Shown: positions 32,170-44,303 of the stretch, in pieces | Position numbering within the stretch: position 1 is the first letter of the stretch | Layout of the letters: each line of letters starts with the position of its first letter | NCBI GenBank assembly: GCA_039630085.1 | Contig: JBCNVM010000002.1 | Location: forward strand, 64,001 to 128,000 | From: Candidatus Caldarchaeales archaeon | GTDB lineage: Archaea > Thermoproteota > Nitrososphaeria_A > Caldarchaeales > Calditenuaceae | Direction: 5' to 3' | DNA length: 64,000 nt | Position numbers and translations under genes: made by a program | Notes under the pieces: model-generated | Database searches by the model: none | Told to the model about the DNA's origin: nothing | Seen by the model: only the letters and a program-made list of their open reading frames with translations

Positions 32170-32830
32170 TCCCGATGACCGTGCAGGGCGCCCCGTCGAC
32201 CCTCTCGACCCTGAGCGGCGCGACCACAACGAGGTCGTAGCTCTCCGGCTTCCCGGCGAGGTCCATGTCCTCTACGATCAGGAACCTCCTCGAGACCAGC
32301 AGCCTCCTGTGGGCCTCCCTCCCCATCTCCCTCCTTAGCGGCGAGCTGATGCTGATCGCGTCGATCCCGAAGGCCCTCACGTTACCGAAGCCGGCGATGT
32401 AGGAGGCGGCCTCGGGGTGGAGCGACACACCTTCGCCCGAGTACCTTGAAGGTTCGGACCTCCTGTAGACCTGCAGGCCGGTCCTGACCATCAGCATCCC
32501 GCACTCCCCGATCAGCCGCTCGTGGGGCCTCAGGTCCTCGACCCCGATCACGCCTCCCGGCTCCTTCGGGACGTCCAAGACCAGGCCGCGCCCGATAACG
32601 AGGTCCTCCGCCAGCAGGTCCTCCACCTTGGGTCCCGAGTCGTCGAAGTGGTTCGGCGCGTCGACGTGCGTCCCGACGTGGTTCCCCGAGCTCATCCTCC
32701 AGGAGTTCGAGGTGTCTCCGCGGGCTATGCTCCTCACCTGCTCGAGCCTCAGCGGCGGCGTCCCGGGGTAGACCGGGTCCTCCTCCCTCAGGACGTGCGA
32801 GAGCAGGTAGACCCGCATCGGGCTCATCAT
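32156..32830 (-). CDS. Cyclase family metal-dependent hydrolase (KynB-like)
   Basis: HVGTHVDAPNH, GIDAISI, DGAP. Confidence 0.9.
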   Translation of the reverse strand: MMSPMRVYLLSHVLREEDPVYPGTPPLRLEQVRSIARGDTSNSWRMSSGNHVGTHVDAPNHFDDSGPKVEDLLAEDLVIGRGLVLDVPKEPGGVIGVEDLRPHERLIGECGMLMVRTGLQVYRRSEPSRYSGEGVSLHPEAASYIAGFGNVRAFGIDAISISSPLRREMGREAHRRLLVSRRFLIVEDMDLAGKPESYDLVVVAPLRVERVDGAPCTVIGIRFD

Positions 32831-32888
32831 GACGCCCTCGGTAAAAACGGTCTCCGGGTCGTCAGCGTCCGCATCGCCACCGGCGAAG

Positions 32889-32896
32889 GTATTTAG
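32889..32896 (+). promoter_or_regulatory. TATA-like box of tRNA-Pro
   Basis: GTATTTAG about 25 nt upstream of the tRNA 5' end. Confidence 0.5.
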
Positions 32897-32918
32897 CGAG
32901 TCCGGAGCAGGTCGACGA

Positions 32919-33014
32919 GGGGCCGTAGTCCAGCATGGAGTGGACGCCCGGCTAGCATGGAGTGATGCCCGGACTGGGCCCGGGAGGTCGCCGGTTCAAA
33001 TCCGGCCGGCCCCA
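32919..33014 (+). tRNA. tRNA-Pro(UGG) with 21-nt intron at non-canonical position 33/34 (32954-32974)
   Basis: Acceptor GGGGCCG/CGGCCCC-A, D stem GTCC/GGAC, anticodon stem CCCGG/CCGGG, spliced loop CT-TGG-GC, T arm GCCGG TTCAAAT CCGGC; BHB with CCGG/CCGG helix and CT^A, AC^T bulges. Confidence 0.9.
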
Positions 33015-33061: not shown

Positions 33062-33406
33062 TCAGAGCCTGACCCTGATCCCCTTCGTCACCGCCTCCCG
33101 GACCACCGCCTTCCTCTCCCTGAACGCCTCGACCTGCGCCGGCGTGTATGGGAAGGCCTCGATGGTGAAAGACCCGTCCCAGAGGCCGCTGACCAGCATC
33201 GCGTTCTCCACGAAGCTCCGCTTCCCGAACTCCTCCGAGACGACAAGCATGTCGAGGTCGCTGTCGACCAGCGGAGTGCCGTAGACCCTCGAGCCGAAGA
33301 GGTAGACCTCGGTGACGTTCAGCTCCCGCTTCAGCCTCCTGAGGAACCTGGCGAGCTCGGCACTCTGCCTCCTCGAGAGCCTGACGCGCTCAAGGGCCTC
33401 AGTCAG
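33062..33406 (-). CDS. Minimal nucleotidyltransferase (MNT antitoxin-like)
   Basis: VYLFGSRVYG...SDLDMLVVS, YTPAQ; start uncertain (CTG overlapping HEPN stop). Confidence 0.85.
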   Translation of the reverse strand: MTEALERVRLSRRQSAELARFLRRLKRELNVTEVYLFGSRVYGTPLVDSDLDMLVVSEEFGKRSFVENAMLVSGLWDGSFTIEAFPYTPAQVEAFRERKAVVREAVTKGIRVRL

Positions 33407-33771
33407 GGAAGCCCCGCCCTCGACCTGACCCATCCTATCACCCTCTCCGCCGCCTGCAGGCACCTCAGGACGATCTCCCTGCTGTAGGCCTCGCTCGGAA
33501 CCGTGTTCGCGGCGTTCGGGTACCTGGCGATCGTGTAGTGAGGGTTGAGCGCCTTCAGGTCGTCCATCAGCTCGTCGGCCTCCAGCGCCCTCCCGAGCTT
33601 GACGAGGTCGTGCCCCCTCGGAGGCAGCCTCGACTTCGCGACGACATAGAGGGCCTTCAGCGCCTTCCCGGCAGCCTAGTGGGCGAGGAAGGCCGAGACG
33701 CTGTACTCCTCGATCTCGTAGTTCCTCCTCGCCTGCCTGAGGTTGTGGAGGGCCTCGCGCCACCAGTCCAT
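33403..33771 (-). pseudogene. HEPN domain protein with in-frame TAG
   Basis: MDWWREALHNL...AFLAH*AAGKALKA...GHDL...ARYPN; TAG at 33678-33676 where CAG (Gln) is expected. Confidence 0.85.
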
Positions 33772-42781: not shown

Positions 42782-42891
42782 AGCCCGGTCGTCTAGCGGT
42801 CAAACTGGCCAGAGGACCAGGGATTCCGGGCTTTGGATCCCCTCTGGGGAGGAGGAACCCGGAGACGCCGGTTCGAATCCGGCCCGGGCTA
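42782..42891 (+). tRNA. tRNA-Gln(UUG) with two introns (21/22: 42804-42820; 37/38: 42837-42856)
   Basis: Acceptor AGCCCGG/CCGGGCT-A, anticodon stem CCGGG/CCCGG, loop CT-TTG-G^A, T arm GCCGG TTCGAAT CCGGC; BHB helices GGTC/GACC and CTTT/GGAG. Confidence 0.92.
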
Positions 42892-44006: not shown

Positions 44007-44303
44007 GGGGACGGGCAGCTGGGCGGGCTTCGGGGAGATCCCGGGGAAGTTCCTCCCTCCCACGGTGGGCCCGGTGCCGCGAGGCACGGGGGGAGACCCC
44101 TGGCAACGCCACAGAAACGACACCCCTCCGGCCGGATGCGGGCTGACGCGGGAGGTCCCGCCGACGACGGCCGGAGACCGGATGAAACGGGCGTCCCGGG
44201 CGGAGAAAGTGACCGGGGCCGTGAGCCCCACCGTCGAGCCCTGGAGGGACGAGAAGACGGATCCCGCCTAAAACGGAAGGAGGGCTACGGGCTGCCCGTC
44301 CCC
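44007..44303 (+). ncRNA. rnpB: RNase P RNA (archaeal, type A-like)
   Basis: P1 GGGGACGGGCAGC/GCTGCCCGTCCCC, CR-I GGGGAAGTTCCTCCC, CR-II ACAGAAA, CR-III TGAAAC, CR-V AAAACGGAAGGAGGGCTA; TTATA at 43979-83. Confidence 0.93.

Follow-up and report, generated by a model that had tools for sequence, protein, structure and literature searches.

A tRNA-Pro(UGG) intron of a Calditenuis archaeon that probably arose by recent tandem duplication of its upstream exon

The window analyzed here is a 64,000-nucleotide (nt) stretch from the genome of a Calditenuis archaeon (Caldarchaeales, 'Aigarchaeota'). It contains a tRNA-Pro(UGG) gene at positions 32919-33014 of the forward strand, the single gene of this identity in the assembly, and the gene is interrupted by 21 nt that closely resemble the exon just upstream. 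The best explanation, which we consider probable, is a recent gain of an intron by tandem duplication of the gene's own upstream exon. We infer the duplication event, its course, the order of the later changes and splicing between tRNA positions 33 and 34 (33/34) from comparison of the sequences. Below, G000 is the genome under study, G001-G007, G013 and G032 are relatives, X1, X3 and X5 are assembly runs, and L with a number is a locus.

The Rfam tRNA family (RF00005) covered 32919-33014 end to end with 52.6 bits, above the cut-off of 29. The alignment placed 25 letters in the anticodon loop against 4 in the model, a surplus of 21 nt. ARAGORN, with introns allowed, reported a tRNA-Pro(tgg) with a 21-nt intron starting from gene position 36. 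Run by default, without introns, it missed the gene and mislabelled another locus. A second UGG gene was not found in the G000 assembly, which is 89.9% complete.

An artefact of assembly does not account for the insert. Run X1, an independent assembly, has a contig that matched 32700-33005 with zero differences. In runs X3 and X5, which belong to two other studies, contigs contained the insert with the substitutions of the G003 type at 32958 and 32963-32965. This G003 type is very abundant in run X5, at a contig depth of about 2,000. Support from outside its own assembly, which the original prediction had asked of the reads, came in this way from independent contigs of three studies. No contig joined directly across 32954-32974; these were contigs only, in which rare alleles are hidden, so this absence is not evidence.

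The unbroken stretch 32932-32975 reads AGCATGGAGTGGACGCCCGGCTAGCATGGAGTGATGCCCGGACT and is composed of 22 exon bases, 21 insert bases and U34. Global alignment of 32932-32953 with 32954-32975 gave 20 matches, 1 mismatch and 2 single-base gaps, with no difference over the first 11 bases. This was the direct repeat, with one substitution and two single-base indels, that had been read from the sequence at the outset. The limits of the second copy are exactly those of the intron.

The strength of the repeat was expressed as a tandem score (match +1, mismatch -1, gap -1.5), taken over every tandem pair with units of 12-40 nt. The tRNA-Pro(UGG) gene scored 16.0. The other 40 Rfam tRNA matches in G000 scored 11.0 or less. 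A set of 72 further tRNA loci, made up of 60 of the 61 long tRNA matches of the three nearest genomes and 12 others, had a best score of 11.5 with a mean of 6.0 and a standard deviation of 1.8, and the best of 29 more tRNA genes of relatives was also 11.5. In shuffled controls, such as the original prediction had proposed for archaeal tRNA introns, not one of 300 dinucleotide shuffles of the gene scored 12 or more.

A further null was constrained by the design of the intron. The CCGG was fixed, a 4-bp hairpin and the correct lengths were granted, and the rest was compared with the exon in tandem register. No intron among 200,000 random ones reached 16, the maximum being 14, and the outcome was the same when the 17 free letters of the intron itself were permuted 200,000 times. 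The counts in the null dropped about tenfold per two score units (86 at about 12, 8 at about 14), and extrapolation from them gave a chance estimate of about 4e-6 per intron. For an identical run of 11 bases in this tandem register the probability was 1.9e-7.

Other candidates for such a repeat stayed within the null range. The tRNA-Ala(UGC) intron, compared with its own T arm, scored 11.0, and the tRNA-Pro(GGG) gene of G007 scored 11.5. The tRNA-Pro(UGG) gene of G006, which has an unrelated canonical intron, also scored 11.5, because of the pseudo-symmetry of the bulge-helix-bulge (BHB) splicing motif. In another genus, the tRNA-Pro(UGG) gene of G013 (L011) has an insert of 28 nt that precedes the anticodon arm and resembles it, with a score of 8.5.

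The BHB geometry was tested for all pairs of cut sites, with a 4-bp central helix (H), two 3-nt bulges and a cut after the second bulge base. This gave 81 BHB-like parses, and only one with all four H pairs and a 4-bp flanking helix yielded the 75-nt tRNA-Pro of the relatives with the anticodon in place. It cuts after 32953 and after 32974, and ARAGORN called the spliced product a tRNA-Pro(UGG) of 75 nt. In this parse H is CCGG/CCGG with 4 of 4 pairs, the bulges are CU/A and AC/U (the slash marking the cut), and the helix inside the intron, h', has 4 bp. The parse agrees with two earlier claims, that the CCGG copies pair as a 4-bp BHB helix and that a cut at 33/34, itself predicted, restores the tRNA.

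Parses that excise the first copy instead (gene positions 14-38 or 15-37) were rejected. They had H 4/4 and no h', and their products of 71-73 nt were, by reading, left without a pairable D stem and without U33.

We infer that the insert is an archaeal BHB tRNA intron of the relaxed type, with predicted excision at 33/34. Relaxed forms of the motif are defined in the accessible text of PMC5829648. As an intron it is an ordinary member of the non-canonical BHB class; the unusual part is its readable origin.

In the course that we propose, the 22 bases A14-U33 would have been duplicated in tandem in the common ancestor of G000 and G003. The unit would end 2 bases after the self-complementary CCGG of positions 28-31, with the second CCGG landing 22 nt after the first. 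Because CCGG is self-complementary, the two copies would pair as H. The two bases after each CCGG and one more base would make up the two 3-nt bulges. Because each CCGG copy has the same two following bases, both bulges and both cut sites would arise together. A cut after the second bulge base of each strand would excise exactly one unit and restore the original tRNA. The cut must fall two bases past the palindrome, which would account for an intron at the odd position 33/34.

An endonuclease of the (alpha+beta) heterotetramer type, tolerant of relaxed non-canonical motifs, would cleave the precursor, whose halves RtcB would then ligate. The second copy, freed from the constraint on the tRNA, would then have drifted, and a C-to-T change would have completed the 4-bp intron hairpin.

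An exact duplication was built in silico. It kept H, both bulges and 3 of the 4 h' pairs, the fourth being an A.C mismatch. Relative to this construct, the present intron has lost one base of the hairpin loop, has T in place of a C, and is changed at two bases of the 3' bulge (CU to AC). Judged from the predicted pairing, only the C-to-T change would clearly improve the motif, by turning the A.C mismatch of h' into an A-U pair. The original prediction had held that the differences between the copies are those that build a GCAT/ATGC outer helix and the bulge. This stood for the C-to-T change; the other differences are not clearly structural, and the helix called outer is the h' inside the intron.

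The enzymes for such splicing are encoded in the genome, as G000 has two paralogues of the splicing endonuclease EndA and an RtcB ligase. One paralogue (178 aa) lies in the window and the other (187 aa) on another contig (Table 1). The accessible text of PMC5829648 assigns the (alpha-beta)2 type of EndA to Aigarchaeota and states that non-canonical introns are cut only by the (alpha-beta)2 and epsilon2 types. By their length, about 23 of the 41 Rfam tRNA matches in G000 are interrupted, so splicing at odd positions is routine in the Calditenuis host.

To follow the distribution of the intron, the 96-nt gene was searched in 41 genomes, G000 included, and tRNA genes were called in the loci returned. 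The 21-nt insert is also present in the G003 orthologue, at the identical site, with differences at intron positions 5, 10, 11 and 12. Positions 5 and 12 form one h' pair (32958/32965), which is U-A in G000 and C-G in G003. The covariation is this one compensatory h' pair, seen in two sequences only, and H is invariant. G006 has an unrelated 22-nt intron at the canonical position 37/38. G004 has an unrelated 22-nt intron at 43/44, present also in its CGG paralogue. The tRNA-Pro(UGG) genes of G001, G002 and G005, three further species of the genus, are uninterrupted, and so, by reading, are 11 of the 13 in other genera of the order, G013 and G032 having other inserts in the region of the D arm. 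The comparison of orthologues, which had been put forward as a check, showed relatives without the intron or with other introns.

The locus is orthologous in G000, G003, G006 and G004. In all four the tRNA gene adjoins the same cyclase gene and the flanks are collinear, with identities to G000 of 90.6% in G003, 84% in G006 and 75-81% in G004. In these four close species, one orthologous tRNA-Pro(UGG) gene (L001 in G000; L003 and L060 in G006; L014 and L061 in G004) has introns at 33/34, 37/38 and 43/44, with exons that are identical or nearly so. Introns turn over very rapidly at this gene.

In trees of GlmS and of a protein with a tRNA-binding domain, G000 and G003 were sisters (support 97/98 and 85/92). 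Both trees grouped this pair with G004 and G006, apart from G001, G002 and G005. The intron is young: it was found only in G000 and G003, and their nearest relatives are uninterrupted or otherwise interrupted.

A degenerate pattern covering both variants of the intron was run against 76 genomes of the order, with the reversed pattern as a control. No copy of the intron was found elsewhere in these genomes, and the only matches with 0 mismatches were the G000 and G003 orthologues. Matches with 3 mismatches occurred at about the rate of the reversed control. The same intron in unrelated tRNAs, the observation said in advance to count against the proposed origin, was looked for in this set and not found.

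The exons of G000, G003 and G006 are identical (75 of 75 positions), and the spliced product differs from the uninterrupted genes of G002 and G005, by reading, only in the T stem. Between G000 and G003, differences were counted at none of 75 exon positions, at 4 of 21 intron positions and at 21 of 139 positions of the immediate flanks (Fisher test: exon versus intron, p = 0.0018; exon versus flanks, p = 0.00013). By this comparison the exons are under strong purifying constraint, and the intron drifts at about the pace of spacer with its hairpin kept. Such a pattern would be expected of a spliced intron in an essential tRNA.

The sites that differ between the two introns also point in one direction. 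At 4 of 4 of them G000 has the base of the exon, and the tandem score of the G003 gene is down to 10.0. This would fit an ancestor like G000 and decay in G003.

Several points weigh against the proposed origin. The outer helix h has only 1 bp (C27-G35), and the motif is relaxed rather than a strict hBHBh'. The minimum free energy (MFE) fold pairs positions 26-31 with the last intron base through position 38, which buries the 3' cut site. Folded with the BHB pairs imposed and no other restraint, the RNA lay above the MFE by 2.8 kcal/mol at 37 C and by 2.2 kcal/mol at 70 C; this calculation superseded a comparison of a rigid BHB fold (-36.1 kcal/mol) with the MFE (-50.0 kcal/mol), which was misleading in leaving the rest of the molecule unpaired.

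The polarity of the change is a second difficulty. The tRNA-Pro(UGG) genes of G001, G002 and G005 lie beside an M19 peptidase gene, at a different locus, so the polarity rests on the outgroup state and not on positional orthology. As to chance, the estimate of about 4e-6 must be weighed against the thousands of introns that may have been scanned; it is still small, and not zero. The tandem signature was found in none of about 140 other tRNA genes examined, and because this is a single case among them, duplication as a general route is not shown.

The number of changes also has to be accounted for. The 4-5 changes in 22 nt are somewhat more than expected for one lineage from the divergence of the spacer (9-25% between G000 and G003 and 14% between G000 and G006, each over two lineages), although the excess is not significant with so few sites. 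Fast tuning or an imprecise original copy could supply it. No allele with an exact duplication or without the insert was found in the contigs, in which rare variants are hidden.

The original prediction had attributed the birth of the intron to duplication by slippage. What stood of it is that the intron is a tandem copy, of recent date, of the exon in its own gene. Such a copy could be made in several ways, slippage among them, and no microhomology is visible at the repeat junction.

One more point against the gene's own exon as donor leads to a different explanation. The GAUGCCCGG in the intron equals the junction of the D stem and the anticodon stem of tRNA-Pro in sister genera, so a foreign or paralogous tRNA-Pro donor is possible on this resemblance. 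The insert would then be derived from tRNA-Pro without local slippage, by way of a paralogous or foreign copy, of double-strand-break repair, or of the integration and excision of a mobile element that left an excisable partial copy. The D-loop string that is copied in the intron is common to all three isoacceptor genes for tRNA-Pro in the genus. The UGG and CGG genes of one genome share a type of T arm and, in G004, the same intron, which argues for exchange between paralogues. Intron gain through integration of an element has been proposed for Caldiarchaeum, in the same archaeal group (Sugahara 2012, PMC3293823, accessible text). We nevertheless regard this origin as unlikely. The two copies abut with nothing between the units, and the flanks are collinear in four species. 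The scanned neighbouring open reading frames (ORFs) are a cyclase, a hexapeptide transferase and an NTP_transf_2 nucleotidyltransferase, and an integrase, recombinase or homing endonuclease, by which a mobile-element-derived intron would be recognized, was not found among them. The closest donor is the gene's own exon: it matches 11 of the 11 bases at the start of the intron as against 7 for the sister-genus type, and about 4 events separate it from the intron as against at least 6 for that type, counted by eye.

It is also conceivable that the intron arrived by some other route, such as transposition from an unsampled donor, and that the resemblance to the exon came from chance together with the pairing of H and the pseudo-symmetry of the BHB motif. 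The palindromic H accounts for the four shared CCGG bases, and the unrelated intron of G006 reaches its score through symmetry alone. With very many windows scanned, a rare coincidence could surface. An intron family common to tRNA-Ala, tRNA-Asn and tRNA-Met in G000 shows that translocatable introns exist in this genome. We hold such a coincidence to be quite unlikely, since the design-constrained introns failed to reach the observed score even with CCGG and the hairpin granted. The run of 11 identical bases falls in the D loop, which the BHB motif does not require to pair; the boundary of the repeat is the splice site; and no donor was found in the 76 genomes. The copy in G003 is less like the exon, as expected of a young copy in decay. 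That the insert is simply retained, the locus being a decaying pseudogene or an assembly error and a working tRNA-Pro(UGG) lying in the unassembled 10%, seems very improbable to us. The completeness of 89.9% and the relaxed motif with its 1-bp outer helix speak for it. It is opposed by the presence of the insert in contigs of three studies and two species, by exons kept at 75/75 in three species while intron and flanks diverged, by the compensatory pair in the intron helix, by the TATA-like box conserved upstream, and by the failure to find a second UGG gene in the G000 assembly. Recent tandem duplication of the upstream exon remains the explanation that we prefer.

The features of the gene and of its intron are collected in Table 1. 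The TATA-like box is kept in the alignment of G000, G003 and G006 and reads TTTTTA in G004.

Table 1. Positions of the tRNA-Pro(UGG) gene parts, the predicted splicing motif and the EndA paralogues (window coordinates unless a contig is named)
Feature	Position	Strand	Basis or remark
TATA-like box TATTTA, probable promoter (putative function)	32890-32895	+	about 27 nt 5' of the tRNA start
Exon 1, tRNA positions 1-33: acceptor, D arm, 5' strand of anticodon stem, C32, U33	32919-32953	+	Rfam, ARAGORN, BHB parse
Acceptor, 5' strand	32919-32925	+	read by hand
D arm, followed by G26	32928-32945	+	read by hand
Anticodon stem, 5' strand C27-G31; C32 and U33 at 32952-32953	32947-32951	+	read by hand
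Repeat copy 1, 22 nt of exon: D loop from A14, 3' strand of D stem, G26, C27-G31, C32, U33 (tRNA 14-33)	32932-32953	+	
Intron, 21 nt, non-canonical position 33/34; with U34 (32975) it is repeat copy 2	32954-32974	+	Rfam, ARAGORN, BHB parse
Central helix H, 5' strand CCGG (tRNA 28-31), pairs with 32969-32972	32948-32951	+	geometry test, H 4/4
Central helix H, 3' strand, CCGG of intron	32969-32972	+	
5' three-base bulge C-U-A, predicted cut 32953/32954	32952-32954	+	cut from the standard BHB rule
3' three-base bulge A-C-U, predicted cut 32974/32975	32973-32975	+	cut from the standard BHB rule
Intron hairpin h', GCAU (32955-32958) / AUGC (32965-32968), 6-nt loop	32955-32968	+	
Exon 2, tRNA positions 34-73: anticodon UGG (U34-G35-G36), 3' strand of anticodon stem, variable loop, T arm, acceptor, discriminator A at 33014; CCA not encoded	32975-33014	+	Rfam, ARAGORN, BHB parse
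EndA paralogue, 178 aa	28544-29080	-	matches the structural (N-terminal) half and, weakly, beta-subunit models
EndA paralogue, 187 aa	G000:C45:32182-32745		matches the catalytic (C-terminal) half of two-unit enzymes

Downstream of the tRNA gene, the ORF at 33062-33763 (-) encodes the NTP_transf_2 (MNT-like) nucleotidyltransferase. G000 and G003 have the stretch from about 33148 to about 33658 (to about 33913), of which G006 lacks about 511 nt and G004 about 770 nt. These 0.5-0.77 kb, found in only G000 and G003, were considered as an insertion tied to the gain of the intron and rejected. A 3' remnant is kept in all four species, which makes separate deletions in G006 and in G004 likelier than an insertion.

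Two further screens were given up. A scan for two T-loop motifs 5-30 nt apart, with at least 118 stretches, found no interrupted genes and was dropped as a test of the duplication model. In 9 of the 12 archaeal loci inspected from it (L147, L159, L160, L164, L179, L189, L191, L202 and L205), a complete tRNA gene was followed 10-15 nt downstream by a second T-loop-like string, GGTTCRARTCC, which may be the scar of an attachment site or a processing element. A strict BHB filter combined with ARAGORN, applied to 83 long tRNA genes of G000, G003, G004 and G006, gave unreliable calls: class II tRNAs came out as 'spliced' and the 43/44 family was shifted.

Other RNA genes of these genomes were noted on the way. 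The tRNA-Gln(UUG) gene at window positions 42782-42891 (+) has two introns, one of 17 nt in the D loop (42804-42820; central helix GGTC/GACC) and a canonical one of 20 nt (42837-42856), and ARAGORN by default labels part of this gene as tRNA-Pro. In its tRNA-Gln(CUG) paralogue on G000:C8, the D-loop intron ends with GGCCAA, the same six letters as the preceding exon, which gives a palindromic central helix and the same bulge dinucleotide. The identity of this D-loop intron in tandem register is 10 of 17, not significant alone. The archaeal RNase P RNA (RF00373) lies at window positions 44011-44299 (+), with 142.7 bits.

The genes for tRNA-Ala(UGC), tRNA-Asn and elongator tRNA-Met (G000:C1:31709-31806, C1:113588-113685 and C12:14811-14906) have related introns at about 43/44, with a GGCGGG...CGCC hairpin and a CCGGGAG end, and several of these genes were mislabelled by ARAGORN. 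Judged by their letters, these introns look like a translocatable family of the Thermoproteales kind. Among the tRNA-Pro genes, the UGG and CGG genes of one genome (L014 and L032 in G004; L001 and L047 in G000) have a T-arm type in common, and orthologues across species differ. This pattern suggests gene conversion or anticodon switching. The uninterrupted tRNA-Pro(UGG) gene of G002 (L044) is on a contig of 4.1 kb, with the M19 peptidase gene on one side and a Cas6-Cas1-Cas4 set on the other.

The intron has much in common with known non-canonical BHB introns of Thermoproteales, Caldiarchaeum and others with (alpha-beta)2 EndA. Like them, it is short, lies off 37/38 and has a relaxed motif, in a genome with many interrupted tRNA genes and with alpha and beta subunits. 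It differs from them in being a recognizable tandem copy of the adjacent exon.

The translocatable intron families are nearer in some respects. Large-scale transposition of introns in Thermoproteales was described by Fujishima 2010 (Mol Biol Evol), as reported in the accessible parts of PMC4090602 and PMC4033280. The recent, lineage-specific gain, the non-canonical site and the permissive endonuclease are shared with those families. Their near-identical introns across tRNA species, as these excerpts describe them, have no parallel for the tRNA-Pro intron in the 76 genomes.

The tRNA-Thr gene of Caldiarchaeum subterraneum (Sugahara 2012), as given in the accessible text of PMC3293823, is alike in the archaeal group, in a direct repeat of the 5' part of the tRNA and in gain within a short time. 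There, by the same text, the repeat units lie 1.8 kb apart with a recombinase gene, and the intron is thought to have entered with an attachment site; here, one unit directly follows the other and there is no element.

The origins discussed for such introns are of other kinds. The available portions of the reviews PMC4090602, PMC4033280 and PMC4390854 treat intron-first, transposition and mobile-element origins, and tandem duplication of an exon does not appear in those portions. Split genes are another origin model in print. The accessible text of PMC11782384 reports direct repeats close to the ends of introns of every class, 4 archaeal ones among them, and reads these as transposon-like footprints. 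They are short and lie within +/-40 bp, in contrast with a full-length copy of an exon, and neither tandem duplication nor slippage comes up in that text.

A 2026 preprint on Asgard archaea, in its available sections, tested copying between tRNAs, mobile elements and reverse transcription, and says of such introns that 'how they arrive remains open'. These sections do not mention a tandem, slippage, de novo or flanking-exon origin; the string 'duplicat' refers in them to whole-gene duplication and to de-duplicated references. No published proposal that a BHB intron originated by tandem duplication of the flanking exon was found in the main texts searched, a provisional result with subscription journals mostly outside the search.

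For spliceosomal introns, a model of gain by tandem duplication, in which a duplicated AGGT is the signal, is said to go back to Rogers in 1989 and to Hellsten et al. in 2011. The two cases are alike in that the duplication gives both splice sites and removal of one unit restores the gene. The machinery differs, and the signal here would be a self-complementary tetranucleotide whose pairing with its own copy makes the BHB core.

The origin of archaeal tRNA introns is an open question, and this locus looks like a snapshot of one such origin, in which the donor exon, the product and the bracketing relatives are all visible. We put forward, tentatively and as a doubtful generalization, that tandem duplication may be a general and self-sufficient route to archaeal introns. 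Any unit that ends 2 bases past a self-complementary tetranucleotide would make a BHB core at birth and be excised precisely, with no need of an element or a donor. Lineages with a permissive (alpha-beta)2 enzyme and GC-rich palindromic stems (CCCGG/CCGGG) would then accumulate non-canonical introns, of which the older cases would mostly have decayed. In this genome such an insert may also be favoured for destroying the DNA target of homing endonucleases or integrating elements directed at tRNA genes.

The model gives a rule that can be applied to any genome: the cut site would be the end of the palindrome plus 2, and the excised piece would be one repeat unit. If the rule holds, it would provide an archaeal counterpart to the tandem-duplication route proposed for spliceosomal introns.

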